A DNA stretch of 64,000 nucleotides from a candidate division CSSED10-310 bacterium (GCA_003558985.1 PWNJ01000038.1:4990-68989), one strand, 5' to 3'; positions 2,861 to 44,086 are shown, counted from the first letter of the stretch. Notes: a model not told the origin generated them from the letters alone. Program-made: numbers and translations.

Positions 2861-3261
2861 GAGCTTACATTGATTCGGATATCCTCATATGGCATCTGCG
2901 CGGGAACAAAAAAGCCACTGTTTTTTTGCGTGATATGCTGAATGACAAGCGGTATGAATGCTGGATTGGCGCGATGCAGCGAGCAGAGATTATGTTTTTT
3001 ACAAAACCTGATGAAGACACTATGACACGTTTGTTTCTTTCGCAATTTAAGACTGCCGCTGTAACGCAGCAAATAGTTGATTCCGGAGCTTTGCTTTACA
3101 AAACCTGGTATAAGAGCCATCGGATAGATATCAACGATGCATTTTTGGCAGCTACGGCGTTGCAGACGGGCGGCACGGTATTCACGCTGAATGTAAAACA
3201 TTATCCCATGCCGGACCTGTCTGTTGTCCAGGCCTGGAAGCCATCTGAAACATTACAATAA
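2857..3261 (+). CDS. vapC: PIN-domain toxin VapC
   Basis: MRAYIDSDILIWHL is a typical PIN N-terminus with its acidic residues. The protein is 134 aa and is coupled to the upstream RHH gene. Confidence 0.75.
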   Translation: MRAYIDSDILIWHLRGNKKATVFLRDMLNDKRYECWIGAMQRAEIMFFTKPDEDTMTRLFLSQFKTAAVTQQIVDSGALLYKTWYKSHRIDINDAFLAATALQTGGTVFTLNVKHYPMPDLSVVQAWKPSETLQ

Positions 3262-3272
3262 TGTCATACTTC

Positions 3273-3392
3273 AACCATCAACCTTCAACCTCTTATGCCT
3301 TCCGCCTTCAGCCTTAAGCCCTCCGCCCTGCGCCTTCAGCCCTAAGCCTTAAGCCCTAAGCCTTAAGCCCTAAGCCTTAAGCCCTAAGCCTT
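3273..3392. repeat. Tandem short-period repeat (heptamer CCYTAAG / 14-mer GCCTTAAGCCCTAA, about 12 heptamer copies, preceded by 3 copies of CAACC)
   Basis: Read directly: ...gccttcagccttaagccctccgccctgcgccttcagccctaagccttaagccctaagccttaagccctaagccttaagccctaagcctt. A TTGACA hexamer follows immediately at 3394-3399. Confidence 0.9.
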
Positions 3393-3491: not shown

Positions 3492-6449
3492 ATGGAAAAT
3501 GAAGCTGTTTGCATTAAAACCGACGGAACGCAAAAGCTCTATGCTGGCCTGCCTTTGCAGACATGGCTGTGGATAGGGCTGTTTTTGTTTGTGATATTTA
3601 CCCGATTTCATCATTTGGGAGACAAACCGTTCCATCATGACGAAAGTCTGTATGGAAAATACATCTGGAATTTTCATGTCGGTCAGGGATACAAATACGA
3701 TCCGATGCAGCATGGGCCGTTTCTGTTCTTCATCAGCCAGCCCATACTGTTTATGTTTGGCGTGTCCAATTATACAATTCGAATGGTTCCGGCTCTGACC
3801 GGTTTTTTTATTACATTTATGTGTTTTTTAATGCGGCGTCGCTTACCGTCCGGAGTTGCCCTGATGACCGGCTGGCTTTTCGCCATCAATGCCGTTGCCA
3901 TGTATTATCAGCGGTTTCTGCTTCATGATCAGTTGTTTACGCTATTTGCGGTGTTGATGATTTTTATACCATTTCTATGGTTTAAAGACCGTAAACAATG
4001 GCAGTATTACGCGTTCTGCGCTGCAACATCAATACTGTATTGTATCAAAGGCAATGCCTTTATTCATTACCTGACCATTTATCTGTTCCTGATAATGTAT
4101 GCCGTCTATTGGCTGTTCATGAAAAAGAAAAAAGTTTCAGAACTGTTTGAAACCTATCCTTTGACAACCAAAACATTCGGTACTGTAACTTTCTGGGGAA
4201 TTGCGTTTGTTATTTATGCATTGGTTAACCAGTTCTGGAGAGGATCCTTCACGAATTGGGATAAAGCATTACACACATACTGGATCGCCATATATGTGCT
4301 ATTTTTCCTTATTGTCGGATGTTTTGTGTATCTGGGTGAAGCCGTGCGGCTTAAACCACGCAAAAAAATACTGGGATTATCACCTGAGTTTTACAAGGAC
4401 AGCCATATCTTTGCTGTTGGAACGGTGATCTTTTTTGCCATTATGATATTCATGTACACCACAATGGGTCAAAACCCCAAAGGGTTCTGGGGCGCAATGT
4501 ATGAATGGTACACATACTGGCTCCATCAGCATACGATTGCACGTATATCCGGACCATTTCACTATTACCATCATCAGATGCTTATCTATGCATTTCTGCC
4601 TCTGGCGGTTACGCTTGTGGCCTTATTCGGACGTGCTCTGCGAAGAAATCCGGCAATCACCGGAGCGTATATTATCGGTTCAACTATCATGATATATGGT
4701 TTTGGGCACTTACGGAACCCATTACCATTTACAAAAGAAAACCTGTTTACCAATCAACACATGGCTATGGCAATAGCGGCTTTTGTTGGTGGAGTTCTGA
4801 TGACGTTTTCGTATATGCGGCAGAAAATGTTTTTGAAATCATTTTATGTCTGGTGGTTTGCTTTTGCCTATATTGTCTATTCATACCTTCAGGAAAAAGT
4901 ACCCTGGCTGGTAATGCATATTATCACTCCGTTGTTTCTTTATGCTGCCTGGGTGTTAATTGATGTTTTCATCGATAAAAAGCATTTCAGCAAATGGGTT
5001 AGAACTTCTGTGATTGTTTTGTTTGGTCTGATGGTCATGTATGAAACGCATACGTCATTTCAGTTAAGTTTTCATAATGAAGCAGATCCGGTTGAACAGA
5101 TGGTGTATGTTCAGACGACATATGAAATACCGATGATCATGGAAGAAATTGAGCGGATAGCATATTGGCAGAATACGCTGCATAAGAAGGAGCTTCCGAT
5201 GGTGGTAACCGGACATGCCACCTGGCCGTTTTACTGGTATTTACGGGATTGGTCCGGTATCAGTTATGGAGCTACTGTCAATCCGGACAGGCATTTGATG
5301 GTAATATGCAATTGGGAGGATCGTCATCGGTTCGCTGAACGTCTGGGTGATCGTTTTATCGTCAGACAATACGGACTGCGAGCCTGGTTCCTTCCAAAAT
5401 TTGCTGATGTTGCCCGGGACGGTAAATTCTGGCACAACGCATGGCGCTGGATGGTGTATCGGGAAAAATTCAATCCAAATCTCTATGGAGCTCAGCATAT
5501 AGCTGTGTTTACCCGTGAGGATGTGTCAATGTTTCAGAAAAGTGTTGATCTGGGTCCGGCGCCTCAACCGACACCGCGCCGCGATCCGCCGCGCCGTGAT
5601 GTGTTGCAGGGAACCAGTCTGAATACATTCGGAACATTCGGCTCTCAAAGGGGAAGATTTAACTCACCAAAAGGAGTCGCAATTGATTCACAAGGCAATA
5701 TATACGTGGCTGATCAGCGGAATAACAGAATACAAAAATTTGATCCTGCAGGTCGTCAGCTTCTGGCATGGGGGTCAAGCGGCAGCGATAACGGCCAGTT
5801 TAATCAGCCGTCGGGGGTTTTCGTCGGTCGGGGTGATCACGTATATGTGACTGATACATGGAATCATCGAATACAGAAATTTGACTCCGAAGGTAAATTT
5901 GTTTTGGCGTTTGGAGACAGCTCGATGCTCTGGGCTCCCAAAGACATTGTTGAGGATGCTGATGGGTTCCTGTATGTCGCCAACACGGGTTTTCATAACA
6001 TTATGAAATTTACCCGGGGTGGCAGCCGCGTATGGTCTGTCGGCCGAAAAGGTACTGGCGCCCGCGAGTTTACCGAACCGGTCGGGCTGGCTCTGGACAG
6101 CCAGGGAAGATTATATGTCGCCGACACTGCCAATAAACGTATCTCGGTGTACGACAGCAACGGGAATCATTTACGGCAGTTTAATGTGTATGGAATGGAA
6201 GAATATTATACGGAACCGTATATTGCCATTGATGAGCAGAACGACAGAATTTATGTCACGGATTCACGCAATAATAACATTCAGGTATTTGACATGAACG
6301 GATCATTCCAGGGTTTCTGGGGCAGGGAAGGGGCCGGCGAGGGTCAATTCAGATTGCCGACCGGTATCACTTATGCTGACGGCAGACTGATCGTAACTGA
6401 AGCACAGAATCACCGTGTTCAGGTATTTGATGCGGCTGACGTGCGCTGA
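3492..6449 (+). CDS. Large polytopic membrane protein: TIGR03663-like GT-C domain (PMT_2-like, DE and HGP motifs) fused to a C-terminal NHL-repeat beta-propeller
   Basis: HHDESLYG and MQHGPF motifs near the N-terminus, and more than 12 hydrophobic segments. From about nt 5615 there are repeated NHL units (GRFNSPKGVAIDSQGNIYVADQRNNRIQKFD, GQFNQPSGVFV...VTDTWNHRIQKFD, etc.). RBS AAGAGGG lies upstream of ATG 3492. Confidence 0.75.
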   Translation: MENEAVCIKTDGTQKLYAGLPLQTWLWIGLFLFVIFTRFHHLGDKPFHHDESLYGKYIWNFHVGQGYKYDPMQHGPFLFFISQPILFMFGVSNYTIRMVPALTGFFITFMCFLMRRRLPSGVALMTGWLFAINAVAMYYQRFLLHDQLFTLFAVLMIFIPFLWFKDRKQWQYYAFCAATSILYCIKGNAFIHYLTIYLFLIMYAVYWLFMKKKKVSELFETYPLTTKTFGTVTFWGIAFVIYALVNQFWRGSFTNWDKALHTYWIAIYVLFFLIVGCFVYLGEAVRLKPRKKILGLSPEFYKDSHIFAVGTVIFFAIMIFMYTTMGQNPKGFWGAMYEWYTYWLHQHTIARISGPFHYYHHQMLIYAFLPLAVTLVALFGRALRRNPAITGAYIIGSTIMIYGFGHLRNPLPFTKENLFTNQHMAMAIAAFVGGVLMTFSYMRQKMFLKSFYVWWFAFAYIVYSYLQEKVPWLVMHIITPLFLYAAWVLIDVFIDKKHFSKWVRTSVIVLFGLMVMYETHTSFQLSFHNEADPVEQMVYVQTTYEIPMIMEEIERIAYWQNTLHKKELPMVVTGHATWPFYWYLRDWSGISYGATVNPDRHLMVICNWEDRHRFAERLGDRFIVRQYGLRAWFLPKFADVARDGKFWHNAWRWMVYREKFNPNLYGAQHIAVFTREDVSMFQKSVDLGPAPQPTPRRDPPRRDVLQGTSLNTFGTFGSQRGRFNSPKGVAIDSQGNIYVADQRNNRIQKFDPAGRQLLAWGSSGSDNGQFNQPSGVFVGRGDHVYVTDTWNHRIQKFDSEGKFVLAFGDSSMLWAPKDIVEDADGFLYVANTGFHNIMKFTRGGSRVWSVGRKGTGAREFTEPVGLALDSQGRLYVADTANKRISVYDSNGNHLRQFNVYGMEEYYTEPYIAIDEQNDRIYVTDSRNNNIQVFDMNGSFQGFWGREGAGEGQFRLPTGITYADGRLIVTEAQNHRVQVFDAADVR

Positions 6450-6520
6450 TCAACCGGGCCGCGGCTGCATTAACAACCTGTCGTGCAATACGTGACACGA
6501 AGTAAAGGAGGACAATTCCG

Positions 6521-8890
6521 GTGGCAGAAGGTCTTTTACTGGTGTTTGTTTGGTGGTTCTGGATACAGATAATCGGCCTGGTCTCATGGCCGCTGTCGCA
6601 CCGTTTTTTTCGCAGTTTCCCCGATAACGGATATATCCTTGCAAAAGGTCTGGGACTTGTTCTTACAGGCTTTGTCAACTGGATTCTTGTTTCATTAAGA
6701 ATAATGAAATTCTCAGTCCTGTCCGTCATTACCGCCATCGTTATTATTGCCGCGTTGTCATGGTTCCTTAAAAAACAACCGCTAATAGCATTTCTACAGT
6801 TTTTAAAAGATCGAAAAAACATCGTTTTTACCACTGAAACTCTGTTTCTGGTCGCATTTATTGCTTTCGCTATCGTCCGAATGGGTAATCCCGATATCGC
6901 TCAAACAGAAAAGATGCCGGATTATGCATTCCTGACCGGTATTGTTACCAGTGATTATTTTCCGCCACGAGATCCCTGGTTTGCCGACGGCACAATCAAT
7001 TACTTCTATTACGGCCATTATCTGGTCGGAATGCTGACGAAAGTGGCCCGAACAGCCCCGGAATATGGATACAATCTGGGCGTTGCCGTAATCTTTGCTT
7101 TTACTCTGCTGAATGCCGCAGGTGTCGCGTATGCACTGATTAAAAAGCTATGGTTTGGTGTTCTTGGAGGTCTTTTTGTTGCGTTTATTGGCAATCTGGA
7201 TTGTGCGATCCAGTTTTTTTCACATCTGGGTAAATTTTTAAGTGGAGAACGACAAATTTATCCGTTTACCTGGTTTAACTGGTGGATGAGCTCACGCGTT
7301 ATTGTGCGTGAGGGTATTGATATCACAATCAACGAATTCCCATTCTGGAGCTATATACTCGGTGATTTGCACGCACACATGAATGTGGTGCCGATATCAT
7401 TGATTGTGCTGGCGATTATTCTGGAATTCTTCCGTTCATCCGGCCCCGGCCTGGATAGTGTCGGATACGGAAACGACAAATGGTTCCGTCTGGCCGTTGC
7501 TGCAATTGCTCTTGGCGCTATCCCCGCCGCCAATACATGGGATACCCCCACCTATTATGCGCTGATGGTTGCCGGACTCCTTCTGGGACGACAGTTTCTG
7601 GTCACCGGACATCTATTAAAGGCAACAAACAAAGAGGCCATATCCGTGGCCGGTGTTGTTCTGTCGCCGATTTCCGAATTTTTTAGCAGAATCAGTCGCT
7701 CCATCAGACACGGCTGGAAAAACCAGGGTTGGAGCGAATTGTTCCAATCATGGTTGGGTATTGCTGGTGTAATTATCCTGTCTTTGGTTGTGTATTTGCC
7801 ATTTCATGCAAATTTTCATCCGGCTGGAACTCAGGGACTCAGAGTGGTCAATCCGGTTCAATATACAATTGCAGGCGATTTTCTGACGATATATGGTTTT
7901 TTCTTTTACTGTATGTTTCCATTCGCTGTTGCGCTTTTATGGCCACGGTTCAGCAAACTGAATAGTCGCCTGAAACCGTTGGTCTCAATAGCTCTGGTCG
8001 CTATGTTTTTTATACTGATGCTGGCGTTTAATCGCTTTATGATACCCTTTTGCCTGTATTTTCTTGCGTTCGTACTGGCGGTTCCGTTGCAGAAAAATGA
8101 TCCTGAAATAAAGGAAAAGTTTTTTGCTCTGGCGATGTGTGTCATGGTTTTGCTGATATTGCTGGGGTGCGAGTTTTTCTATATCAAGGATGCATACGGC
8201 CGAACTCTCGAACGACAAAATACTATTTTCAAGTTTTATTACCAGGCATGGATATTTTGCGGTATTGCATCAGCATATGCGGTGTACTGGTTCAGAAAAC
8301 ACGCCAGACCGGTGTTATACTATGCATGGGAACCCGGATTTCGTATTCTGCTTGTCTGCACTTTGATGTTCCCTTTTATCGGGTCTGCAGTAAAAACAAA
8401 CCATTTCCGCTCCTTCACCAATCCATCCCGACATGCCAAACCTACTCTGGATGGTATGTTTTATATGACATGGCAACACAAAGGTGATTATGAAGCAATA
8501 ATGTGGCTTAGAAATAATGCTGATCCGGAACAACGCGTGCTGGAAGCGACCGGTCCGGCGTTTTCGCATTATGGACGAATCTCTGCCGGCACCGGTATGG
8601 CTACCATTCTGGGGTGGGGAAATCATCAGAATATATGGCGTGACGGGTCATGGAAAATGGTTAATGAACGCAGCGGACATGTCAGGCAGGCCTATACATC
8701 AACTGATCCGAATCAAATCAGGAGCATACTGGATAAATACCGTATAGATTATGTGTTTTACGGACGACTGGAACGTGAGCAGTATTCGAACTCATCACCG
8801 GATAACTTCGCGTTTCTGGAAAAGGTGATGGAAACAAGGGATAGTGATAACAGAACGGTGTATCTGTTCCGGTATGTTCCGGAGAATTAG
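6521..8890 (+). CDS. DUF2298 / Chlor_Arch_YYY (TIGR03662-like) integral membrane protein
   Basis: FPPRDPWFADGTINYFYYGHY motif. It is highly hydrophobic at 789 aa. GTG start with RBS GGAGGA. The C-terminal third is paralogous to the C-terminal part of the 2012-aa protein (FKFYYQAWIF...PTLDGMFYM...). Confidence 0.75.
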   Translation: MAEGLLLVFVWWFWIQIIGLVSWPLSHRFFRSFPDNGYILAKGLGLVLTGFVNWILVSLRIMKFSVLSVITAIVIIAALSWFLKKQPLIAFLQFLKDRKNIVFTTETLFLVAFIAFAIVRMGNPDIAQTEKMPDYAFLTGIVTSDYFPPRDPWFADGTINYFYYGHYLVGMLTKVARTAPEYGYNLGVAVIFAFTLLNAAGVAYALIKKLWFGVLGGLFVAFIGNLDCAIQFFSHLGKFLSGERQIYPFTWFNWWMSSRVIVREGIDITINEFPFWSYILGDLHAHMNVVPISLIVLAIILEFFRSSGPGLDSVGYGNDKWFRLAVAAIALGAIPAANTWDTPTYYALMVAGLLLGRQFLVTGHLLKATNKEAISVAGVVLSPISEFFSRISRSIRHGWKNQGWSELFQSWLGIAGVIILSLVVYLPFHANFHPAGTQGLRVVNPVQYTIAGDFLTIYGFFFYCMFPFAVALLWPRFSKLNSRLKPLVSIALVAMFFILMLAFNRFMIPFCLYFLAFVLAVPLQKNDPEIKEKFFALAMCVMVLLILLGCEFFYIKDAYGRTLERQNTIFKFYYQAWIFCGIASAYAVYWFRKHARPVLYYAWEPGFRILLVCTLMFPFIGSAVKTNHFRSFTNPSRHAKPTLDGMFYMTWQHKGDYEAIMWLRNNADPEQRVLEATGPAFSHYGRISAGTGMATILGWGNHQNIWRDGSWKMVNERSGHVRQAYTSTDPNQIRSILDKYRIDYVFYGRLEREQYSNSSPDNFAFLEKVMETRDSDNRTVYLFRYVPEN

Positions 8891-8907
8891 TTTTTGAAGG
8901 AGATATC

Positions 8908-11900
8908 ATGGGTTCAAAAGATCAATGGGCTGAATTGACCGTTAAAAAACGGCGTAACTGGCTCCTGTTTTTCCTGTTTTTGATAGGTCTGGGATTGCGT
9001 CTGCACGGGTATGACTGGGGCATGCCGCATCATTTTCATCCTGATGAACGGCAGATCGTTGATTTTCAGGCTCCCAAAGTCAATCTGGATGTTTTGAATC
9101 CATCCAAATCAGTACCATTGCTGGTGCGGGGCCAATGGACTGAACTTAACACCATGCTGGACGGCATGAACACCAAATTTTTTGCCTACGGCCCACTGCC
9201 GATGTACACACTGGTGATAACGGTTGAAATAAGTGACTGGATAAATTCCAACGTCAGATCATTTGCACAGAATCGGCAAAACATGTCACCGGAAACCCGT
9301 CAGAAAATCAATGAATGGTTCCCACGCGTTAAAACTCCAGGCGGCCGGGTTCTTACCGGGCGAATAATATCAGCGATATTTTCGGCCCTAACCATTCTGG
9401 TCATATTCAAAATCGGCAAATATCTGTACAATGCTAAAATCGGATATCTGGCTGCTGCATTGTTTACCTTTACAGTCCTGTCAATTCAACAGGCACATTT
9501 TCTTGTTGTTGACGGCCCACAAACAACTCTGGTGGCTCTGGCAATGTTTTTTCTTGTCCGGACGGCTATGGGTGAAAGACGGCGGGATTACTATCTGGCC
9601 GGTATTTTTATCGGTCTGGCAATGGCAACCAAATTCAGCACCGCCCCCATTGCATTGTCATATATTCTGGCACATGTTCTGTCTATGACACTTGGCCGTC
9701 GCCGTGACAAGGCTGACTGGTTTCACTGGATAGCAGGTGGTATCGTCGCAATTGTTGCCATGACAATTGTTATGCCATTCTGGATTCTGGATTCAGAAAC
9801 ATTTTTCAGGGATATCCAGGCACAAAGAAATATGGTCACCGGTGTCGCTGATCTGCCTTATACCATTCAGTTTGAAGGCACAATGCCGATGGTTTATATG
9901 ATAAAAAACATGATTTTGTGGTCACTTGGGCTCCCGCTGGGTCTGGCCGCATATATTGGACTCATTGCCGCCATCAGACGAATCTGGAAAAAACCCGAGG
10001 ATATCGGCAATATTGTTATCCTGTCGTTTGTGATTCCTCTGCTGTATCTGAACGGAACATTTCATGCCAAGTTTTTGCGTTATACATTGGTAACCATTCC
10101 GTTTTTTGTCATATTTGCCGCTCGCTGGCTTCATGGAATGAAATCCTGGACAGCGCGTCCGGTCGCACGGACCGTTACCGCAGCCGTCCTGCTGGGCACA
10201 ATCGGCTGGGCTCTGGCTTTTCAGACCATTTATACATCCCCCCATACACGTCTGCAGGCTTCCGATTGGGTGTATGAAAATATCCCGGCTGGAAAAAACA
10301 TCGTGCTCGAAAGCAGTTGGGATGATTCCATGCCGGTTACTACCGACAGGGGCAATGCCGGAAGATATACATCACGGCAGTTGGGTATCTACAGAGAACC
10401 CGATGATCATCGCCGCGCAGCAGCCATGGCTGAGATTCTGGAGTGGGGTGATGTGGTCATTCTGTCATCACGAAAACATTACGGTTCTGTTACAAGAGTG
10501 CCCAATCGATATCCGATCTCAACCAACTTTTACAAATTGTTGTTTCACGAAAGATTGGGTTATCAGCATGTAAAGACATTTGATAATCCACCATCACTTG
10601 GCAGATTGCGTTTTAGAGATGATCTGGCTGATGAAAGTTTTCGTGTATATGAACATCCGCGTGTCGATATTTTTGTTAAAGAAAGCTGTTTGACTGCCGA
10701 TCAGATTCAAGCGCTGCTGATCGCTCCCCCGCCCGAAGTTGCTGATATGACTTACAGGGAGCTTATGACGCGGCGGCCGCCAACCGAAATTGGCCCTCAT
10801 GTCAACTACCCAGTTATTCGGTGGTTAATCGCGCTTTATATATTCGGACTGATCAGCATTCCGTTTGCCTTTGTTATCTTCAGCAAATTCGATCACAAGG
10901 GATACCCGTTTACCAAAATCATCGGTCTGCTGGTAACAGCATATCTGGCGTGGCTGTTGCCCAGTATTGAATGGTTTCCGTTTTCACGGACATTGATTAT
11001 AGCTGTGATTATTGTGGTCGCATGGATCAGTCATACGCTATATCGCTATCACAAGAAAGCAATTCACACACATTTTAAACAGCGATGGTGGAGTATTGCT
11101 GGATATGAAATTCTGTTTTTAGTTGTGTTTTGTATCTTCGGTCTACTGAAAAGCTATAATCCGAACATTTATTGGAGTGAAAGCTCAATGGATTTCGGGT
11201 TCCTGAACGCTGTGGTGCGGGCAGAGACCTTTCCACCCGAAGACCCGTGGATTCAGGGACAGGGTATAAACTACTACTATTATGGCCAGTATCTGGCCGG
11301 ATATATGACAAAATTGACCGGGGTTGAACCTCACTATGGCTATAATCTGTTTTTTATAACAATACCAGCGCTGGTAGCGCTAAGTATTGCGGCTATTCTA
11401 CTGGCGCTGACCCGGCGTGTCTGGGTCGCTCTGATCGGTGTCCTGTTTTCTATTTTTATAGGTAATCTGGACGGCTTGACTCAAATGGCCAATATATGGG
11501 TACGTAATGCCAGAGGAACCGATATGTATCGGTTAGCGACCGGATTTCAGACAACAATCGGCTGGGTTTTTAATCTTGGTCGGCAAGATCCGCACTTTCG
11601 ATTTTTCAGATCAGCGCACGAATTGATTCGACCAACCGTTCATGAGTTTCCTTTCTGGAGTTATAATTTCATGGATTTGCACGCGCATACCGTGGCAACC
11701 ATGTTGACGGCGTTTTTTCTGGCGCTGCAGCTTGTTTTGCTTCGCAACTGCAAAGGCGGTCTTCGGCTATTTGGAGAAACCCGTACTCAGCAAACGGCAA
11801 CGATGGGAATTTTGTTTATCTCATATGGCGCGATGATTTCAACCAACTCGTGGGACCTGCCAACTCAGGCCATTATACTTCTGCTGGTGTCTGTCTGGGT

Positions 11901-14900
11901 TATGATCTTTGCCGGAAGACAGCCCAAATACCGTATGGAAACGGCTGAACGTATTCCCGATGACCGCACACCAGACAGTATTGAAACTCAACCTTCTGAG
12001 AGTGCAGACGAAGAGGTGGCTGACAATGGAACACACCCGGACAAAAGCAGTGTGAAGCCAAATTCAGACCAAAACGAAGCCGTAGAATCAGCAGACGAAT
12101 CCGGCACCAGTGATGACACGCGTAGGTCAATTCCACATGAGGTCAATGATGTTTCTGATGCAGAATCAAAGATGCAAGCTGATGCTGAACCACTGGCTGA
12201 CAGGAATGGCGATACAGAGCAGGATGATGTGGTTTCGGAAGAGGTTTCGAAAAAAACGGATATACCGGAAGCGCCGGAAACCAATGAAACGGACATGGAA
12301 TTTGAAACCCGGGTAGAAACCGACAAGGCTGATGAATCCGACTCAGACATTGAAGGAGCAGTAAACACCGACACTGAATTGGACAGGAAAGCAACTGCAA
12401 CAACGGATGTTCAAAAGACTGACTCCGACTCCGATTCAATGGAACAGTTGAATGAACAATCAGAAACTGAAATCGGTGTTTCAGACGATTCGAATACGAT
12501 ATTGTCCGATGATGATGTATTGGATAGGGCAGATGATATTGAAACACAAGATACGCCTGATGATAGTACACTCAAACCAAATGAGTCTGAAAAAGATACT
12601 GACAAGATAAACATCAGTTTAGTGGCCAGGATTCGTGACGGGTGTACACGATTTGTCAGGTGGTTAATACCTGAGTTGTGTGATTCCGGCTTTTTCCTGT
12701 GGCGATTGCTGTGGCCGGTAGCTTTGGTAATTATCGGCGGAATGACGTTGCATCTGCCGTATCTGAATCATTTCTACAGGCATGAAATGGGCTTGGGAAC
12801 ATTGTGGAAATACAGGCAGACAACCAATCTGGATGGTTTCCTGACAATGTTCGGCTTTTTCCTGTTCATTTTTATCACTCAGTTCATTCGCTGGTGGTGG
12901 GATGTACAGAAAGACCGGGGCCGATCACCCATGCAGGCATTGTGTCTGCTGATCGGTGTCATCACGGTTCTGATAGTTGTCTGGTACGGATTTCTGAATG
13001 TCCCGGAACGAGGAGTTGATTATTCTGTATTACTGATAAGTATATTCCTGATTTTACTGATACTTTCCATACTGATTGAGGGGTATCCATCACTGAATGA
13101 AGCATTTCCACTGCTTTTGGCGTTGTGTGCCGTGGGTATTACTGCCGGATGCGAATTGGTATTTGTTCGTGATTTTTATCAGGGAGGTGAACATCGCCGG
13201 TTTAACACGGTTTTCAAGTTCTATATTCAGGCATGGTTTATGTTCGCGATTGCTTCCGCATATTTACTGGCGGTAAGGTCACGAATACGTGTTCGCTTCT
13301 ATAAACACAATCTGACTAAAAATCTGGTTCGGACAAGCGCCTGGGTATGGAATCTGGTGTTTATTTTTCTGCTGGCCGGCACACTAATATTCACTTTCAA
13401 GGGAGTTCATGCAAGGCATCACAACCGCGATTTCCAACAGGGATGGCGACTTGCTGGTCGAACGCCAACTGCAGACATGCCACTCACACTGGATGGTTGG
13501 GCATACATGAAACTTGACTATCGGCCGGTAAACGAATACCGGGCAATACACTGGTTGCAGAATAATATAAAAGGTACTCCGGTTATTCTGGAAGCTACCG
13601 GAGCTGACTATTTGTATCAGTATGGCAATATCTCGGGTAATACCGGATTGCCAACAGTACTGGGCTGGTGGAGTCATGTCGATCAACGGGAATATCTGGT
13701 TCGCCAGGGGCGCGGCGAAGGTCAGCGAGACCGAAAGATTGATACCGGGAGAATCAGACGCGACATTGAAACCATATACAATAGTGTGGATATTCCCAAA
13801 GTTCTGTCACTGCTGGGTCAATACAGGGTGCGGTATATATTTGTCGGGCCGACGGAACGGGAAGAATATAATCCGGTTGGTTTGCAGAAATTCAAACAAA
13901 TGAGTACATTCCTGACTCCTGTTTATACCAATCCGGATGTCGTGATTTATCGAGTCAATGATTACGGTCACAGTGTTGATCTGGCGGAGACAATTCAGGA
14001 TAACCAGGCATTGATACGGTTGCGGGAAGAGATGGAAGAGCGGGAGGAGCAGGAACGGATTGCCCGGCTTGAGGCAGAAAGGGAGCGAGAACGCCGAATG
14101 ATGCAGCAGCCGGCACGCGCTTTGACTGCCGGCGGCAGAGGTCGAGCAAGAGGCATGTTCGAAGAACCGCGATCCATGACAATCGCACCCGATGGAAGCT
14201 TTTATGTCGCTGATTTCAGAAATCACCGCGTTCAGAAATTTGCTCCGGATGGTTCATGGCAGAATATGTGGGGCAGTTCAGGCAATATGCCGGGCGAGTT
14301 TAATGATATCTGCGACGTGGCTGCCAACTCAACCCATGTGTTTGTGCTGGATACGTTTAATAATAGAATTCAGAAATATACTCATGATGGACAGTTCGTG
14401 CAGCTTATTATTGCCCAGGGACAAAGTGTGTCTCATCCAAGGGGTATTGCCGTTGATGAAGAGTATATCTTTATGGCCGACACCGGAAATTCAAGAATTA
14501 TTCGAATGAATCTTGCTGGCCGCGAAACACGAGTTATCGGAAGAGCCGGCCGGGGACAGCTTCAATTTACAAACCCGGTCGGTCTGACCATCCATAATAA
14601 CGAAGTGTATATCGCAGATACCGGCAACAGACGTATTCAGGTAATGAGTCGTGACGGTGAGTTTTTGCGCGAGTATCCGACTGAGGGATGGGAAGCGGAG
14701 GTATATAACGAACCGTATCTGGCAGTGGCTGAAGACGGCACGATATATTATTCTGATCCATCTCGAGGAACGGTGCGCATGATTGATCAGCAGGGACAAC
14801 CTGTGGGACGCTTGACCGCGGCAGCTGATGGTCGAAGACTGTCACTACCGATGGGACTTGCTATTGATAATAACGGAAATGTGTATGTTGTTGACGCTGG

Positions 14901-14946
14901 CAATCACGCGGTCATGCTGCTGAAACGTGATTCCGGAATTCAATAG
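8908..14946 (+). CDS. Giant (2012 aa) fusion membrane protein: TIGR03663-like + DUF2298/YYY domain (split by an acidic insert) + coiled coil + C-terminal NHL beta-propeller
   Basis: N-terminal FHPDERQ (DE motif). FPPEDPWIQGQGINYYYYGQY at about residue 770. D/E/S/T-rich low-complexity insert at residues ~1010-1237. Resumed DUF2298 C-terminal homology (FNTVFKFYIQAW..., LTLDGWAYM). LIRLREEMEEREEQERIARLEAERERERR coiled coil. NHL repeats (FYVADFRNHRVQKF, VLDTFNNRIQKY, ADTGNSRIIRM, ADTGNRRIQVM). Confidence 0.75.
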   Translation: MGSKDQWAELTVKKRRNWLLFFLFLIGLGLRLHGYDWGMPHHFHPDERQIVDFQAPKVNLDVLNPSKSVPLLVRGQWTELNTMLDGMNTKFFAYGPLPMYTLVITVEISDWINSNVRSFAQNRQNMSPETRQKINEWFPRVKTPGGRVLTGRIISAIFSALTILVIFKIGKYLYNAKIGYLAAALFTFTVLSIQQAHFLVVDGPQTTLVALAMFFLVRTAMGERRRDYYLAGIFIGLAMATKFSTAPIALSYILAHVLSMTLGRRRDKADWFHWIAGGIVAIVAMTIVMPFWILDSETFFRDIQAQRNMVTGVADLPYTIQFEGTMPMVYMIKNMILWSLGLPLGLAAYIGLIAAIRRIWKKPEDIGNIVILSFVIPLLYLNGTFHAKFLRYTLVTIPFFVIFAARWLHGMKSWTARPVARTVTAAVLLGTIGWALAFQTIYTSPHTRLQASDWVYENIPAGKNIVLESSWDDSMPVTTDRGNAGRYTSRQLGIYREPDDHRRAAAMAEILEWGDVVILSSRKHYGSVTRVPNRYPISTNFYKLLFHERLGYQHVKTFDNPPSLGRLRFRDDLADESFRVYEHPRVDIFVKESCLTADQIQALLIAPPPEVADMTYRELMTRRPPTEIGPHVNYPVIRWLIALYIFGLISIPFAFVIFSKFDHKGYPFTKIIGLLVTAYLAWLLPSIEWFPFSRTLIIAVIIVVAWISHTLYRYHKKAIHTHFKQRWWSIAGYEILFLVVFCIFGLLKSYNPNIYWSESSMDFGFLNAVVRAETFPPEDPWIQGQGINYYYYGQYLAGYMTKLTGVEPHYGYNLFFITIPALVALSIAAILLALTRRVWVALIGVLFSIFIGNLDGLTQMANIWVRNARGTDMYRLATGFQTTIGWVFNLGRQDPHFRFFRSAHELIRPTVHEFPFWSYNFMDLHAHTVATMLTAFFLALQLVLLRNCKGGLRLFGETRTQQTATMGILFISYGAMISTNSWDLPTQAIILLLVSVWVMIFAGRQPKYRMETAERIPDDRTPDSIETQPSESADEEVADNGTHPDKSSVKPNSDQNEAVESADESGTSDDTRRSIPHEVNDVSDAESKMQADAEPLADRNGDTEQDDVVSEEVSKKTDIPEAPETNETDMEFETRVETDKADESDSDIEGAVNTDTELDRKATATTDVQKTDSDSDSMEQLNEQSETEIGVSDDSNTILSDDDVLDRADDIETQDTPDDSTLKPNESEKDTDKINISLVARIRDGCTRFVRWLIPELCDSGFFLWRLLWPVALVIIGGMTLHLPYLNHFYRHEMGLGTLWKYRQTTNLDGFLTMFGFFLFIFITQFIRWWWDVQKDRGRSPMQALCLLIGVITVLIVVWYGFLNVPERGVDYSVLLISIFLILLILSILIEGYPSLNEAFPLLLALCAVGITAGCELVFVRDFYQGGEHRRFNTVFKFYIQAWFMFAIASAYLLAVRSRIRVRFYKHNLTKNLVRTSAWVWNLVFIFLLAGTLIFTFKGVHARHHNRDFQQGWRLAGRTPTADMPLTLDGWAYMKLDYRPVNEYRAIHWLQNNIKGTPVILEATGADYLYQYGNISGNTGLPTVLGWWSHVDQREYLVRQGRGEGQRDRKIDTGRIRRDIETIYNSVDIPKVLSLLGQYRVRYIFVGPTEREEYNPVGLQKFKQMSTFLTPVYTNPDVVIYRVNDYGHSVDLAETIQDNQALIRLREEMEEREEQERIARLEAERERERRMMQQPARALTAGGRGRARGMFEEPRSMTIAPDGSFYVADFRNHRVQKFAPDGSWQNMWGSSGNMPGEFNDICDVAANSTHVFVLDTFNNRIQKYTHDGQFVQLIIAQGQSVSHPRGIAVDEEYIFMADTGNSRIIRMNLAGRETRVIGRAGRGQLQFTNPVGLTIHNNEVYIADTGNRRIQVMSRDGEFLREYPTEGWEAEVYNEPYLAVAEDGTIYYSDPSRGTVRMIDQQGQPVGRLTAAADGRRLSLPMGLAIDNNGNVYVVDAGNHAVMLLKRDSGIQ

Positions 14947-14970
14947 AAACCGCCCGCGTCGCTTCTTTGC

Positions 14971-15435
14971 TCACATCCCTCCGGCGTCGCCGGGCAACCG
15001 CCGGATAAAATCGCCATCAATTGACTGTTTATCCGTGGAACTCGTAACATCAATCAAATCAGACGGCCCTGACACATGCATCACATCGTCCGGTGACCCT
15101 TCAACCATATTTAATCGGATCGTAACGGTGCTGTATGGTCGCAGATTGACTTCTGACCGAACCAATGTTTTCATTTCCGAGCGCTCAAATTTTAAAGTAT
15201 ATTCGCCGACTGGCAGAACCGGGAAACGAAATCGACCGCGCTGATCGGTAACAACATTGCGCTCCCCCATAAGATTCGGACTGGTCACGGTGATCGTAAC
15301 ATCGGATAATGGTGTGTCATCTTCTGAGCGAACAAGGCCGGTTATGCGTCCATGATTCGGTGATGCATCCACCAAATAAACAAAGGTGAAAATAAACAAA
15401 ACTATTACACTTATTTGGATTATCTGTCTGTTCAA
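14971..15435 (-). CDS. Small secreted protein with a carboxypeptidase-regulatory-like (CarbopepD_reg) domain; possibly a truncated N-terminal fragment of a TonB-dependent receptor
   Basis: Signal/TM segment, then ITGLVRSEDDTPLSDVTITV...GEYTL (CarbopepD_reg-like), ending ...LIDVTSS...RRLPGDAGGM, which resembles the start of a plug domain. The ORF stops 25 nt from the 3' end of the giant gene. Confidence 0.45.
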   Translation of the reverse strand: MNRQIIQISVIVLFIFTFVYLVDASPNHGRITGLVRSEDDTPLSDVTITVTSPNLMGERNVVTDQRGRFRFPVLPVGEYTLKFERSEMKTLVRSEVNLRPYSTVTIRLNMVEGSPDDVMHVSGPSDLIDVTSSTDKQSIDGDFIRRLPGDAGGM

Positions 15436-15587
15436 TCATATCACCTCCTTAAAAAACAGTACATAAATGATATCAAAACCAGAAGGTGATCTCAAAAATG
15501 ATCGAAGTATATGGTAACATGACTGCTGTCTGACAGTAGTGAAAGGTGTTGACGTAATTTTTGCTGACAAGTTTGTTATGCAGGTTT

Positions 15588-18536
15588 TCACGCAGCAGAA
15601 TCAACCTTCATAACATGTATTATTGGTTCAGGCCATTCCGTGTCGGATTCCCTGTATATTGTTTTTATCGTGACATTGGGGAAAAGCTCTTTTATCTGCT
15701 GCATGATATACATATTACGGTTGTAGTGATCCAGCACAAAAGCGATTCCCTTGTCCGGTGAATGCTCCTTGTCACGAATAGCCGTGAGATTATCCTGGAT
15801 TTCTTCGTTAGTAATAAAATCCGGTTCCCGGCCGCCAGTAATGGCAAAAACATCACCTGGAATTCGGTAACAAATAAACTTGGGAGTGTCCAGAAAATGG
15901 CTGTTGCTGACATACACATGATAATCTGCCGATAATTCCAGCGCTTTGTATCCCACTTGAGTATGCAACGGAGCGTAACCGAATTGGGCATGGGGACTTC
16001 GGGCCAGAACATGAAAATACAAATGATATTCGCTGATGCCGATCCAGATCAATCCCGCTGTTAGCCAAAGAATTGCGGGAATGCTATTCAATGCTGGGAG
16101 TTTTGTTCTGGTCAGCAATTGAACGGAGAGAACAAGTCCCAATGCAATCATGATGGCCAGCGGTACGGTAAACTGTATCAGGCGAGTTGCGTCCGGCTCC
16201 GAAAGTAGTCCGGGCAAAAGTCCAAAAATAGCTGCTATAAAAACCCAGAAACAGTTTCGTTTCCCAAAGTGTCGCAGTAAATATGCCAGGCCAATCATCA
16301 TAAAAAAACCGGATATTGCGCTAATAATGGGTATGGATGGCTCAAAAAAATTTCCTACGTCAGCACGAAAATGAAAAATCTGAAGATGCCTCAGAATTGA
16401 ATCCCAAAGCGGCTGCCATGAGCCGCTAAACCGGACCAGATTACCGACAAACAGATGACCGGTACGCTCCAGAAACATTTGCGGATTGTTAATGGCGTAC
16501 AAAAACAATGGGAAAAACATCAACCATGCAAATACTTGCATTACCAGAAGCCCGTGCCAGTTTTTGCGCATAAATTTCGGTGTGGTTATCCATGTATGAA
16601 TACCGATAAGAATCATCATGAACGGGACTCCGCGAAATGAAAAATATGTATGAAGTCCCATACCGATGCTTATGCCGGAAGCCGCATAGTAAAGAAGACG
16701 TTTCCCGACTGAATGACTGTCAACAGCACGGTAAAAAAACCATCCGGTCATAACCATGAATAATGGTGCCAGAACTGCTCGATATCCAGTTCGCGCATAG
16801 GTGAGATTCCAGGCCATTACGGCATAAACAGCCGATGCCGCGAACGCAACATGCCGGTTCCATAAATCCCGGCATAAAAAAAACAGAAACACAACCGTCA
16901 GAAATCCGGCGGCTACTCCAGGTAAATACAACGAATAAACTGACGTTCCGAACAGTCTGAAACTCAGCGCTATCAAGTAAAAATAAAATGTTTCCTTGCC
17001 CCAGGCCTCCTCAGTAAACGGCGTATAGGGCTCACCATCAAGTATTCGATACGCATAGATAGCGTTCCAGGCCGCGTCATTGTTGATACCGGTTGGAACA
17101 GACTGAAGTCTGTAAAAGCGAAGGCCGATTGCTGCAATGAAAACAATAGAAACCAATACAAACGACACTGTTTTTGATCGTTCCGATGTAAGCGTGACAG
17201 ATGAAGGAAAAAGTGTTGAATTCCGAAAACTGGCCCACAAAAGAACTGCGCCGGTGATCAGCAAAACTGCTCCTGAACGAATCATGGGAGATGAAATCCG
17301 AAGCAGAATCATTCCGACCGCTACGCACAGCATTCCGATGATTATTAACCACCGACACAAAGACGGATGGTCTTGAAGATATTTTAACAAACCGGGTTTT
17401 CCCTGTTTTTGTCTGTATTTGAGATACATATATATCCAGAAGATAATAATACCAATTGCCCCAATATCTATTGGCAATCGAACAGCAAGCGGGATGTCGG
17501 GAATAAAACCTTCCTGACGTTGGACTTTCGGTAGTGGTGGAGGTAAAGGAAACTGGATAATCCGGTTATTGATTGTGTCACTGATAAACAGGCGATCGTC
17601 CTGAGTCAGGGCAATACCTGTCGGTCCGTTAAATGCATTTGCACTTGCTCCGTACTTGCCAAACCGGCTATACAGTTTGCCATCGTTTGTGTATACGATA
17701 ACCTTATGGTTGGCAGGTGATGTCACATAAATCATTCCACTATCGTGTATAGCAATATATGCTTCAGTAAACTCTCTGCCAGTCCAGTCATTCACCGGAA
17801 TAATGCGAAGAGTTTGACCATTTTGGTCCAGAACTTTGATTCGATTGTTTCCGGTGTCAGCAACATATACATTGTTGTCCGGACCAATCACAATTCCTAC
17901 AGGATTGAAAAAATGATCCGGCTCCGGCTGACCACTACCCCATGTGGCAGTCAGTTGTCCTTCCGAGTCAAAAACCATGACGGTATGGTGGGACGTGTTA
18001 GTCACATAAACCCGATCCGAAGCGTCAACGGCGATTCCTCGCGGAGCTGAAAATTGTGCTTTTGCCCAGGTCGCTTCCCATGTACCTGATTCATTACAGA
18101 AACGCTGAACACGATGATTCCAGGTATCTGCCACGTAAATATTCCTGTCGGAATCCATTGTTGCGGCTGCTGGATCTTCAAACTGACCGGGATTCTTGCC
18201 GCGGCGTCCCCAGACTCCCAAAGCAGTTCCGTCCGAAGTCAATTCCTGAATTCGGTAGTTTCGGAAATCACTGATAAGAATAGTGTCTGATGGTGTCAGA
18301 GTGACCTGTCGTGGTTCGCGAAACATTCCGGGATCGTCACCCAATCCACCGAAATGCAGATAAGCCGGGTTTTCAACAAATGAATCGGCAGAAACAAGCC
18401 CATATCCACCGGAAAATATTGCCAGAGTTGCAGAAATGACAACGATAATGCTCATGAAAACCAGAGCAAGTCGGTTAGTCTTTTGAATCACCGACATCAT
18501 AATTTTCAGTATCAAGCCTGTCGATTGTCTCTTCAA
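15588..18536 (-). CDS. Large membrane protein: N-terminal TM anchor + NHL-repeat beta-propeller + C-terminal GT-C (GT39/PMT_2/ArnT-like) polytopic glycosyltransferase domain
   Basis: NHL units (RNYRIQEL, NIYVADTWNHRVQRF, ADTGNNRIKVL, DTINNRIIQF) in residues ~70-330, followed by about 12 hydrophobic helices with a GT39-like loop (GINNDAAWNAIYAYRILDGEPYTP). An alternative start near 18500 would reduce the overlap with the upstream GT2 gene. Confidence 0.7.
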   Translation of the reverse strand: MKRQSTGLILKIMMSVIQKTNRLALVFMSIIVVISATLAIFSGGYGLVSADSFVENPAYLHFGGLGDDPGMFREPRQVTLTPSDTILISDFRNYRIQELTSDGTALGVWGRRGKNPGQFEDPAAATMDSDRNIYVADTWNHRVQRFCNESGTWEATWAKAQFSAPRGIAVDASDRVYVTNTSHHTVMVFDSEGQLTATWGSGQPEPDHFFNPVGIVIGPDNNVYVADTGNNRIKVLDQNGQTLRIIPVNDWTGREFTEAYIAIHDSGMIYVTSPANHKVIVYTNDGKLYSRFGKYGASANAFNGPTGIALTQDDRLFISDTINNRIIQFPLPPPLPKVQRQEGFIPDIPLAVRLPIDIGAIGIIIFWIYMYLKYRQKQGKPGLLKYLQDHPSLCRWLIIIGMLCVAVGMILLRISSPMIRSGAVLLITGAVLLWASFRNSTLFPSSVTLTSERSKTVSFVLVSIVFIAAIGLRFYRLQSVPTGINNDAAWNAIYAYRILDGEPYTPFTEEAWGKETFYFYLIALSFRLFGTSVYSLYLPGVAAGFLTVVFLFFLCRDLWNRHVAFAASAVYAVMAWNLTYARTGYRAVLAPLFMVMTGWFFYRAVDSHSVGKRLLYYAASGISIGMGLHTYFSFRGVPFMMILIGIHTWITTPKFMRKNWHGLLVMQVFAWLMFFPLFLYAINNPQMFLERTGHLFVGNLVRFSGSWQPLWDSILRHLQIFHFRADVGNFFEPSIPIISAISGFFMMIGLAYLLRHFGKRNCFWVFIAAIFGLLPGLLSEPDATRLIQFTVPLAIMIALGLVLSVQLLTRTKLPALNSIPAILWLTAGLIWIGISEYHLYFHVLARSPHAQFGYAPLHTQVGYKALELSADYHVYVSNSHFLDTPKFICYRIPGDVFAITGGREPDFITNEEIQDNLTAIRDKEHSPDKGIAFVLDHYNRNMYIMQQIKELFPNVTIKTIYRESDTEWPEPIIHVMKVDSAA

Positions 18537-19437
18537 GAAGATGGCGATTGACCCGTATAAGATCCGTTACTACACCAAACAAAACCAAAGAAAAACCCAG
18601 ACTCATAAACACAGAGGCAATCACGAGCGACTGAACTTTTCCGGTGGGATCCGGAAAATTGATCAGATAATAAATCAAAAACCGAAAAAACAGCAGTCCT
18701 CCTACGCCCAGACTGATTAGTCCTGAACGATTAAAAAGCTTTTCGGGACTGTAAAGCGCCCATATACGAATTATTGTGGCAGCCTGTCGTCGAATATAAT
18801 ACCAGTTACTGTGAAACAAGTGGCTCGGGCGAGTCGGTGGATTGGTGCGGACTTCAATCGAAGCCACACGCAACCCGCTTTGAGCTGCCTGGATAATTGT
18901 TTCAATCGTATAAGTAAAATCTGAAAAAACTTTCAACCGTCTGAGCGCACGTCTTGAATATGCCCGAAACCCACTTGCAACATCCCGTACATCAGCTCCG
19001 GTCAGCCATTTGATAATCTGGCTGCCCATACGTTGCAACCGTTTTTTCATCGGTGAAAAATGTCGAATGCTCTCAATAGGACGACAACCCACCACTACAT
19101 CTGCCTGATTTTCAAGAATCGGTTGCACAAGAGCATGAATGCATTCACCGACATATTGATTGTCTCCATCCGTGTTGACAAGAATGTCCGCTTGCATTCT
19201 GGATGCTTCTGCCAAACCCCGGGCAAATGCACGAGCCAGTCCCTGGTTATAAGGCAATGACACAACCCGGTCCACACCCAGATTTCGGGCAACTTCGGCT
19301 GTGCTGTCAGTTGAACCATCGTCGATAACCAATATCTCTATCCGGTCAATGCCGGGAATGGATTTTGGCAAATCCGAAAATGTCATCGGCAGTGTCTCGG
19401 CTTCATTAAAACAAGGTATTTGAATCACAAGTTTCAT
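18475..19437 (-). CDS. GT2 polyprenol-phosphate sugar synthase (Dpm1/GtrB/ArnC-like)
   Basis: MKLVIQIPCFNEAETLP...ILVIDDGSTDSTAEVA...DGDNQY contains the GT2 DxD/DGD motifs. The C-terminal hydrophobic helices are typical of Dpm1/GtrB-type enzymes. Confidence 0.75.
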   Translation of the reverse strand: MKLVIQIPCFNEAETLPMTFSDLPKSIPGIDRIEILVIDDGSTDSTAEVARNLGVDRVVSLPYNQGLARAFARGLAEASRMQADILVNTDGDNQYVGECIHALVQPILENQADVVVGCRPIESIRHFSPMKKRLQRMGSQIIKWLTGADVRDVASGFRAYSRRALRRLKVFSDFTYTIETIIQAAQSGLRVASIEVRTNPPTRPSHLFHSNWYYIRRQAATIIRIWALYSPEKLFNRSGLISLGVGGLLFFRFLIYYLINFPDPTGKVQSLVIASVFMSLGFSLVLFGVVTDLIRVNRHLLEETIDRLDTENYDVGDSKD

Positions 19438-19552: not shown

Positions 19553-20428
19553 TTGAAACCAGGGGAGGATGCTTTGGCTCATTCAGGTCATTTTTCGATA
19601 TATAAAATCGTAGTTGCAATGTTGTTGACTGGTTTGACCGGATGTTCAGAGTGGTCGCCACCATCCCGATATGACTGGTCGAATCCAGCACATCTGGATA
19701 CGGTTACCATAACGCTGGATAATGGAGTGACTCTGGAAATGGTCTATCTGGAAGGTGGAACTTTCCAAATGGGATCATCACCGGAAGATCCTGGACACTA
19801 CGGTATTGAAGCGCCTGTACGAAACATCACTCTGAGTGGGTTTTGGATAGGACGCCATCTGGTGACTCAGGCTCAGTATCTTTCTGTCATGGGTACGAAT
19901 CCGGCATTTTTTACTGGTGACAACCGTCCGGTCGAACGTGTTTCCTGGCATGATGCGATGGCCTTTTGCAGAACACTGTCTTCGTCAATTGACGGCACAT
20001 TCACACTGCCCACCGAAGCGCAATGGGAATATGCCTGTCGGGCAGGCACTCTGACATCATTCAGTTTCGGTGACTGCCTTGATACGGCTCATGCAAATTA
20101 CGACGGTCGAAGACCATTTGAGGAATGTCCTACAGGTGATTTTCGTGGTGAAACCTGGGATGTTGGTTCTGGCCAACCAAATCTATGGGGTTTGTACGAT
20201 ATGCATGGTAATCTGTGGGAATGGTGTCTGAACTGGCACGGACCATACTCGCCGGGTGATGCAGTCAATCCTGCTGGACCAGCAAGTGGGCAAATACGAA
20301 TTTTACGGGGTGGAGCATGGGACTTGCATCAACGACATTGCCGAAGTGCACACCGGACGGGTGGAGAGCCTCAGACCCGCTGGGGAAACCAGGGTTTCCG
20401 GATAGTTCGGCTTTCGGAGACGGAGTGA
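19553..20428 (+). CDS. FGE-sulfatase (SUMF1/formylglycine-generating-enzyme-like) domain lipoprotein
   Basis: Lipobox LTGLTGC. RVSWHDAMAFC...GNLWEWCLNWHGPY...RGGAW motifs of the FGE-sulfatase domain. Confidence 0.65.
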   Translation: MKPGEDALAHSGHFSIYKIVVAMLLTGLTGCSEWSPPSRYDWSNPAHLDTVTITLDNGVTLEMVYLEGGTFQMGSSPEDPGHYGIEAPVRNITLSGFWIGRHLVTQAQYLSVMGTNPAFFTGDNRPVERVSWHDAMAFCRTLSSSIDGTFTLPTEAQWEYACRAGTLTSFSFGDCLDTAHANYDGRRPFEECPTGDFRGETWDVGSGQPNLWGLYDMHGNLWEWCLNWHGPYSPGDAVNPAGPASGQIRILRGGAWDLHQRHCRSAHRTGGEPQTRWGNQGFRIVRLSETE

Positions 20429-42787: not shown

Positions 42788-42800
42788 CCGGGATGTGATT

Positions 42801-44078: not shown

Positions 44079-44086
44079 GACTAAAC

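Follow-up and report, generated by a model that had tools for sequence, protein, structure and literature searches.

The subject of this work is a cluster of glycosyltransferase-like genes at positions 3492-19437 of a stretch of DNA of 64,000 nucleotides (nt), here called the window, from a bacterium of the candidate phylum CSSED10-310. The five open reading frames (ORFs) that an initial annotation of this DNA had proposed were all found at their coordinates and on their strands, and its family assignments (TIGR03663, DUF2298/TIGR03662, PMT_2, NHL and GT2) were confirmed by searches with hidden Markov models (HMMs). On the plus strand, g1 (3492-6449), g2 (6521-8890) and g3 (8908-14946) follow one another with intergenic gaps of 71 and 17 nt. 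Convergent to them is a unit on the minus strand, led by g5 (18475-19437); g4 (15588-18536) comes second and overlaps g5 by 62 nt, and gX (14971-15435), a further small gene, closes the unit. ORFs of 790-2012 amino acids (aa) whose HMM E-values run from 1e-73 to 1e-160 lie far outside what chance would produce. The cluster is judged to be a real, uncharacterised variant of glycosylation by polyprenol-phosphate sugars and enzymes of the glycosyltransferase fold C (GT-C).

The ATG of g1 at 3492 is preceded, 8 nt upstream, by a AAAGAGGG ribosome-binding site. Translated from this codon the protein has 985 aa, equal in length to NCBI protein P0121, with 100% identity over the 705 residues queried; its residues are numbered below from a TTG at 3486. 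It scores 247.3 bits for TIGR03663, the Agl23 family, against a curated NCBIfam cutoff of 126.25, and is composed of about 15 transmembrane (TM) helices in aa 1-530, a putatively extracytoplasmic alpha/beta domain at aa 547-677 and a C-terminal beta-propeller at aa 711-985 (5616-6440). Five NHL repeats were detected by HMM at aa 720-985; the propeller itself is six-bladed and structurally like those of TRIM-NHL proteins or PknD. A Pfam scan of the isolated aa 531-705 at E<=10 gave nothing usable. An AlphaFold2 model was built from an alignment of 60 TIGR03663 sequences (predicted local distance difference test score, pLDDT, 92.4; predicted template modelling score, pTM, 0.80), and its membrane domain found its best structural superposition in ArnT.

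The motifs that the initial annotation had named for these families (DE, HGP, FPPxDPW and INYYYYG) proved to be real. In the 60-sequence alignment of TIGR03663, H51-D52-E53 (3636-3644), which stands directly after TM1 in the first extracytoplasmic loop, and H76-G77-P78 are invariant, as are R99, R143, D148, W345, R353 and E470-K471. The HDE triplet is a candidate for the catalytic or donor-binding site. The loops of g1 that are rich in Lys and Arg (RRR116-118, RK169-170, KKKK213-216, aa 290-305, RR386-387 and KK498-499) alternate exactly as a protein of 15 TM helices that begins inside and ends outside would require, and on this alternation the propeller, the alpha/beta domain and the HDE loop would all be extracytoplasmic. 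Agl23, published as a flippase, belongs to this family, for which the model of g1 shows as membrane domain a complete ArnT-like GT-C fold with the invariant HDE.

The second gene encodes a stand-alone DUF2298 protein (TIGR03662, Chlor_Arch_YYY), matched over its full length by PF10060 at 4e-103 (346 bits) and by TIGR03662 at 533.9 bits (cutoff 300.25). All four large membrane proteins of the cluster had been described as fused to NHL propellers; this holds for g1 and g3, where the propeller is C-terminal, and for g4, where it is N-terminal, and fails for g2, which has no HMM match beyond DUF2298/TIGR03662 and no NHL. The AlphaFold2 model of g2, from a 60-sequence alignment (pLDDT 94.9, pTM 0.95), gave structural matches with ALG12 (figure of 15.0), ArnT (14.5), AglB (13.9), STT3B (13.8), AftA (13.7), Pmt4 (13.6), AftD (12.4) and PglB (11.4), AftB also being among them. 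Foldseek at E<=0.001 returned seven matches only, and all were DPY19, AglB or AftA. AglB, STT3B, PglB and DPY19 match the DUF2298 model across the membrane domain, and the C-terminal globular domain of g2 (aa 626-789; 8396-8887), which is of the extracytoplasmic type found in oligosaccharyltransferases (OST), separately matches OST C-terminal domains. No STT3 match was found for this domain in a Pfam scan, even at E<=10, and the WWDYG motif which, with Pfam STT3, marks GT66 is absent from g2, G-W-G-N-H standing at 698-702 instead.

The conserved polar residues of the DUF2298 alignment (invariant or at least 90% conserved) fall in four clusters. The first is a long loop (aa 123-179) in which E130, W153, Y161 and Y163 are invariant and K131, D134, P148, P149 and D151 are conserved at 90% or above; its aa 130-165 (6908-7015) hold TEK.xD, FPPxDPW and INY(F/Y)YYG, in g2 INYFYYG, and are proposed to form the first extracytoplasmic loop of the GT-C core. 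The second cluster (aa 259-286) is made up of R259, E272, D282, H284 and H286, of which D282, at least 90% conserved, lies next to the invariant H284. The third covers aa 551-577, and the fourth belongs to the C-terminal domain (E675, R686, W699, H702 and R707), where W699 and H702 are invariant and G698 is at least 90% conserved within a G-W-x-N-H motif. We take the DxH-type D282-L-H284 and the G-W-x-N-H motif to recall the metal site of AglB and WWDYG, as a lead only. The strongly basic aa 84-99 suggest three extra N-terminal helices in DUF2298 with the N-terminus outside; such an orientation would fit g3, where the DUF2298 module comes after the soluble domain of a PMT_2 module. At the level of sequence, g2 searched on its own showed no meaningful match to solved structures, nor did a profile of 60 sequences (which gave only spurious TIM matches, at E>0.01), and hhalign comparison of the DUF2298 and TIGR03663 profiles detected no homology (probability 1.9%). 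Judged from the models, the kinship of the two families is structural only.

In g3, whose product has 2012 aa, a GT-C module of PMT_2 type (aa 1-633) is fused to a split DUF2298 module, which a charged linker connects to an NHL propeller at the C-terminus (aa 1740-2005; 14125-14922). Its HMM matches comprise PMT_2 with 59 bits (aa 151-287), TIGR03662 with 432.9 bits (cutoff 300.25), PF10060 with 288 bits and NHL at aa 1750-2005, and an HPD46E47R motif follows the first TM helix. The DUF2298 module aligns in two halves, aa 636-986 to residues 8-344 of g2 and aa 1271-1655 to residues 414-756, parted by an acidic low-complexity insert of 250 aa (aa 1007-1256; 11926-12675) that contains 75 Asp/Glu; the presence of two DUF2298 copies was rejected in favour of this single split copy. 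Since homologues of g3 range from 1776 to 2087 aa, the insert region is probably length-variable. GT39 proper is marked by PMT (PF02366) together with MIR in a large lumenal loop. In the full-length scans PMT_2, and not PF02366, passed its cutoff; PF02366 reached 30 bits only when the N-terminal region of g3 was scanned alone, and no MIR match was obtained.

The minus-strand gene g4 encodes, in order, a basic N-terminus, a signal-anchor helix (N-terminus inside), an NHL propeller (aa 51-346; 17499-18386), four TM helices, a PMT_2/ArnT-like GT-C module and a C-terminal domain of 150 aa. NHL was matched at aa 60-330 (1e-33), the NHL domain of TRIM71 aligning over aa 60-329, and the GT-C module was recognised by PMT_2 (42 bits; aa 517-676) and weakly by the ArnT model NF009784. 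The sequence NND487AAW follows the TM helix that opens the PMT_2 module, with D487 in the first loop, and the four TM helices between propeller and D487 loop predict that both are on the same, outer, side of the membrane. The acidic first-loop residues of g3 (D46/E47) and g4 (D487) come from single sequences. Neither g3 nor g4 matches the TIGR03663 model, and Pfam scans at E<=10 of the isolated aa 442-633 and 1503-1740 of g3 and of the C-terminal domains of g4 and g2 yielded nothing usable.

The first gene of the minus-strand unit, g5, belongs to GT2 (PF00535 at 1e-24, 88 bits). Its best solved relatives are the dolichol-phosphate mannose synthase (DPMS) of P. furiosus (PDB 5mlz, 3.7e-13) and ArnC (1.7e-8), and its best NCBIfam matches, all far below cutoff, are AglJ, a haloarchaeal dolichol-phosphate (Dol-P) hexose transferase (57 bits against a cutoff of 375), PpgS, PgfS and ArnC. 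The protein carries the motifs DDGSTD (D39-D40), DGDNQ (D90-G-D92-N-Q) and SGFR and two C-terminal TM helices (238-261 and 267-296); the QxxRW motif of processive synthases is not in the sequence. It thus combines what defines the DPM1/GtrB/ArnC type, namely a DXD-bearing GT-A domain, a TM hairpin at the C-terminus, absence of QxxRW and polyprenol-phosphate-sugar synthases as closest relatives, as the initial annotation had supposed. A processive GT2 synthase was rejected on the same grounds (no QxxRW, two TM helices only, DPMS and ArnC nearest). From its relatives, motifs and hairpin, g5 is predicted to be a polyprenol-phosphate sugar synthase, the sugar being named by no equivalog model.

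The models of g1 and g2 (pLDDT 92-95) are of polytopic membrane proteins that superpose on solved GT-C enzymes, and they were not placed in a non-glycosyltransferase fold; on this modelled evidence both the TIGR03663 and the DUF2298 families have GT-C folds. An acidic motif in the first loop, predicted earlier, is present in every GT-C module, and is invariant or near-invariant where alignments were built (g1 and g2). From parity under the positive-inside rule, the three NHL propellers are predicted to face outside the cytoplasm. The phylum CSSED10-310 has been predicted to be Gram-negative (PMC8248873), so that the term periplasmic is reasonable.

The trio g1-g2-g3, propellers included, was found to be kept in the CSSED10-310 lineage down to 37% identity, and g1 and g2 are always adjacent. 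In the same lineage the GT2 gene followed by the NHL-PMT_2 gene forms a conserved co-directional pair, often overlapping, with GT2 identities of 60-87%; in relatives the pair is followed by 0-3 further PMT_2 genes, and the unit converges on g3. Some of these neighbourhoods add a Wzx-like flippase, GT4 and GT2 enzymes, a methyltransferase and fusions of sulfatase with NHL. Two relatives have such sulfatase-NHL fusions, of about 1000 aa, beside the GT2/NHL-PMT_2 pair (L090, 6758-9859; L091, 2286-5285), and these suggest that NHL propellers are a recurrent extracytoplasmic module of the envelope enzymes of the lineage.

The DUF2298 family is large (11,393 representatives of 50%-identity clusters at E<=1e-3, and 5,736 at 1e-30) and occurs in stand-alone forms of about 700-900 aa and in long fused forms of 1,400-2,700 aa. 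A peptide-pattern scan of a collection with one genome per species gave at least 600 stretches, of which the best 80 loci, mostly from Chloroflexota, were scanned with home-made HMMs; the following counts refer to the 78 loci outside CSSED10-310. A TIGR03663-like gene was present in 42 of the 78, a PMT_2-DUF2298 fusion in 35, two or more DUF2298 genes in 27 and a fusion of TIGR03663 with NHL in 10; a g5-like GT2 stood within 10 kb of DUF2298 in 3. In Chloroflexota a recurrent order was noted, namely PMT_2-DUF2298 fusion, DUF2298, short TIGR03663-like protein and TIGR03663-NHL fusion (for example in loci L013, L015, L038, L047, L059, L064, L081 and L085). One locus (L058, 9986-20381, from an unrelated uncultured bacterium, MFD05684 bin) carries three genes in a row, for a DUF2298 protein standing alone, for a PMT_2-DUF2298-NHL fusion and for a GT2 like g5, and is the only one outside CSSED10-310 among the best 80 with NHL on a DUF2298 fusion. 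A C-terminal NHL propeller occurs on 65 of the 120 best TIGR03663 matches, including proteins labelled Chloroflexota and Acidobacteriota, and on none of the 120 best DUF2298 matches.

These distributions correct the initial annotation in several respects. The propeller in place of the tetratricopeptide repeat (TPR) is not special to this locus, being common on TIGR03663 proteins. The system remains uncharacterised, as claimed, and is less novel than claimed, since the DUF2298/TIGR03663/PMT_2 cluster, TIGR03663-NHL fusions included, recurs in many Chloroflexota. The partnership with GT2 was borne out within CSSED10-310 and not elsewhere: the adjacency is specific to this lineage, and GT2 as a universal partner of DUF2298/TIGR03663 was rejected on the 3 loci of 78. 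The locus is a lineage-specific elaboration of a widespread and catalogued gene cluster, to which it adds a GT2 of its own and the NHL propellers of g3 and g4. As catalogued (Chloroflexi and Archaea, TPR-extended), TIGR03662 and TIGR03663 are likewise adjacent and DUF2298 is likewise found both alone and in long fusions, whereas the extension here is NHL and not TPR. Fusion of GT-C enzymes of the PMT_2/PMT superfamily to a non-cytoplasmic repeat domain is itself known from TMTC1-4, with lumenal TPR, and from the PMT O-mannosyltransferases, with MIR; here the repeat is a six-bladed NHL propeller, N-terminal in g4.

On balance we lean, with some reserve, towards the view that the locus encodes an extracytoplasmic glycosylation system which uses polyprenol-phosphate-sugar donors and comprises five modules of GT-C fold; the type of donor is indicated indirectly, by the conserved neighbouring GT2 of DPMS type. 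By homology and operon structure, g5, anchored in the membrane, would act at the cytoplasmic face and charge undecaprenyl phosphate (Und-P) with the sugar of a nucleotide sugar. The lipid-linked sugar would then reach the outer leaflet. The g1 protein may flip the donor, use it, or both; flipping is considered because TIGR03663/Agl23 is the sole family here with experimental data, and these point to translocation of lipid-linked sugars. The GT-C modules, whose fold and motifs are described above, would transfer the sugar in the periplasm by means of their acidic first loops, the transferring modules being g4, the N-terminal PMT_2 module of g3, the DUF2298 modules of g2 and g3 and possibly g1. 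The three outward propellers may serve to bind the acceptor or to keep the enzymes attached to it, in parallel with TPR in TMTC and MIR in the PMT O-mannosyltransferases. The PMT_2-DUF2298 fusion, found in g3 and at 35 of the 78 loci, together with the adjacency of g1 and g2, indicates that PMT_2-superfamily and DUF2298 modules probably act as a physical pair.

Several observations weigh against this view. The sequence by itself gives no enzymatic activity, sugar identity or acceptor. For g5 no NCBIfam equivalog cutoff is reached, the top score being that of AglJ (91 bits against 325), and g5-like GT2 enzymes at 50-55% identity occur in many phyla and in unrelated contexts. A g5-like GT2 lies near DUF2298 at only 3 of the 78 loci, so that the DUF2298/TIGR03663 system does not have the donor synthase as an obligate member. 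DUF2298 is without sequence-level similarity to any solved GT-C enzyme or to TIGR03663, and the topologies were derived by hand-made charge and parity (positive-inside) analysis and not by a dedicated predictor. Scans for promoters and terminators gave scores no better than shuffled sequence, so that the operon boundaries rest on spacing and conservation. Finally, the sole experimental data for the family of g1 indicate a flippase and not a transferase.

This last point leads to the proposal that g1 is a dedicated flippase or scramblase of lipid-linked sugars, like Agl23 of Haloarcula, which would supply Und-P-sugar to g4, g3 and g2, the NHL propeller serving only for docking; we regard it as possible, though rather unlikely. 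The g1 protein passes the cutoff of TIGR03663, which NCBIfam names after Agl23 ('flippase activity-associated protein Agl23'), and the first 26 kb of the window showed no flippase of Wzx or GtrA type. The Agl23 of Haloarcula hispanica, a putative hexose-P-dolichol flippase, rescues the yeast rft1-delta mutant and, when purified, translocates M5GN2-PP-Dol in proteoliposomes (PMC11182771); the initial annotation, which held these families to be function-unknown, had missed this studied member. That report remarks only that Agl23 is unlike Rft1 and does not discuss its fold. The fold and HDE motif of g1 look transferase-like. As in the archaeon, where Agl22 accompanies Agl23, a GT2 resembling Dol-P-hexose synthases accompanies g1; in contrast to the archaeal protein, g1 presumably works on undecaprenol, has an extra external alpha/beta domain and NHL propeller and stands beside DUF2298 and PMT_2 genes.

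The nature of the acceptor divides the remaining readings. The likeness to ArnT and the Aft enzymes and the polysaccharide-type neighbours in relatives favour a glycan, and a real possibility, though less likely than not, is that the cluster builds or decorates an envelope glycan (lipopolysaccharide, LPS, or lipid A, exopolysaccharide or a secondary wall polymer) and not proteins, with NHL binding polysaccharide, in the manner of ArnC/ArnT, GtrB/GtrC or the mycobacterial Aft/Emb arabinosyltransferases. Among structures, ArnT heads the matches of g1 and comes second among those of g2, which include AftA, AftB and AftD as well, and g4 has a weak ArnT match in NCBIfam. Moreover, related loci put GT2/PMT_2 genes by a Wzx-like flippase, GT4, GT2 and a methyltransferase, a typical polysaccharide cluster, and several GT-C modules in series recall the assembly of arabinogalactan. 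The resemblance to ArnC/ArnT (and to GtrB/GtrC, Ppm1/Pmt and archaeal AglD/AglS) extends to the sequence, motifs and TM hairpin of g5 and to the conserved pair in which g5 is directly followed by a GT-C gene, g4; the locus differs in having five GT-C modules instead of one, two of them DUF2298 and three carrying NHL, and in reaching no equivalog cutoff. However, DUF2298 also matches the peptide-directed AglB, STT3 and DPY19, with an OST-like C-terminal domain, and no LPS gene is linked to the cluster in the window. Protein O-mannosyltransferases, too, are known with extracytoplasmic protein-interaction domains fused to GT-C.

The likeness of DUF2298 to AglB, STT3 and DPY19, C-terminal domain included, mildly favours a peptide or protein acceptor. 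It allows the speculative, and in our estimate unlikely, proposal that DUF2298 is a new peptide-directed GT-C family of OST/DPY19 type, obligately paired with a GT-C module, like Agl23 or like PMT_2, by which the lipid-linked donor is flipped or presented, outward NHL propellers selecting folded protein acceptors. With STT3/AglB/PglB (GT66) and with DPY19, a C-mannosyltransferase, DUF2298 shares the matches of membrane and C-terminal domains, acidic and His loop residues and an invariant Trp motif; it differs from them in lacking WWDYG, a Pfam STT3 match and sequence similarity, and in its three extra N-terminal TM helices. That DUF2298 might be a non-catalytic subunit of GT-C fold, like PIG-U of the glycosylphosphatidylinositol (GPI) transamidase, with only the PMT_2-type modules active, we consider quite improbable.

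Among the neighbouring genes, gX encodes a small secreted or anchored protein with an N-terminal hydrophobic signal/TM segment and a CarboxypepD_reg domain (Pfam, 7e-16); it lies 3' of g4 and is probably outside the conserved system, as tblastn found no match in any related locus. Divergent from g5 is a gene for an FGE-sulfatase protein (formylglycine-generating enzyme; 19553-20428, plus strand). Both gX and this gene were rejected as parts or acceptors of the system, neither being found in related loci. Upstream of g1, relatives carry folD, ClpP, trigger factor and a GTPase where the window has NrdD/NrdG and a PIN toxin, so that the left boundary has been rearranged here. Between the NrdD/NrdG genes and g1 lie the PIN-domain toxin gene (2857-3261) and a small ORF (2549-2860). 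Just upstream of g1, at 3269-3392, a 14-bp tandem repeat GCCTTAAGCCCTAA was noted, with 6.4 copies, 86% matches and a 7-bp sub-period from 3269, and a TTGACA hexamer directly follows it at about 3394.

The GC content is 0.44-0.48 in positions 1-26000 of the window and 0.36-0.43 across most of 30000-64000. In the latter part, two ORFs of 454 aa (30429-31793, plus strand) and 701 aa (37997-40102, plus strand) gave no Pfam match, and a right-handed beta-helix protein of 865 aa is encoded at 31872-34469 (minus strand). Genes for a membrane protein of the LPG_synthase_TM family and for BacA/UppP (undecaprenyl-pyrophosphate phosphatase) at 42795-45787, 25 kb downstream, fit an undecaprenol-based envelope chemistry and are not specific to the cluster.

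Both DUF2298 and TIGR03663 are large and widespread families with almost no functional data, and a literature search found no functional study of DUF2298 and none of NHL-fused GT-C enzymes. The GT-C folds, taken with conserved loops that resemble active sites, with the conservation of the partnership and with the donor synthase dedicated to the cluster in this lineage, turn a group of 'domains of unknown function' into a testable glycosylation hypothesis. The g1 protein bears on an open question of glycobiology, namely what flips polyprenol-phosphate sugars: its ArnT-like GT-C fold with invariant HDE suggests either that GT-C proteins can scramble their lipid donors or that Agl23 is really a transferase. 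Little is understood of the cell envelope in CSSED10-310 and in many Chloroflexota; the cluster probably contributes to it. If DUF2298 were indeed the OST-like partner of a donor-presenting module, the 'flippase' Agl23 would be a GT-C-fold protein, and Chloroflexota, CSSED10-310 and some other lineages would share, in this cluster, a general system of protein glycosylation that has so far gone unrecognised.

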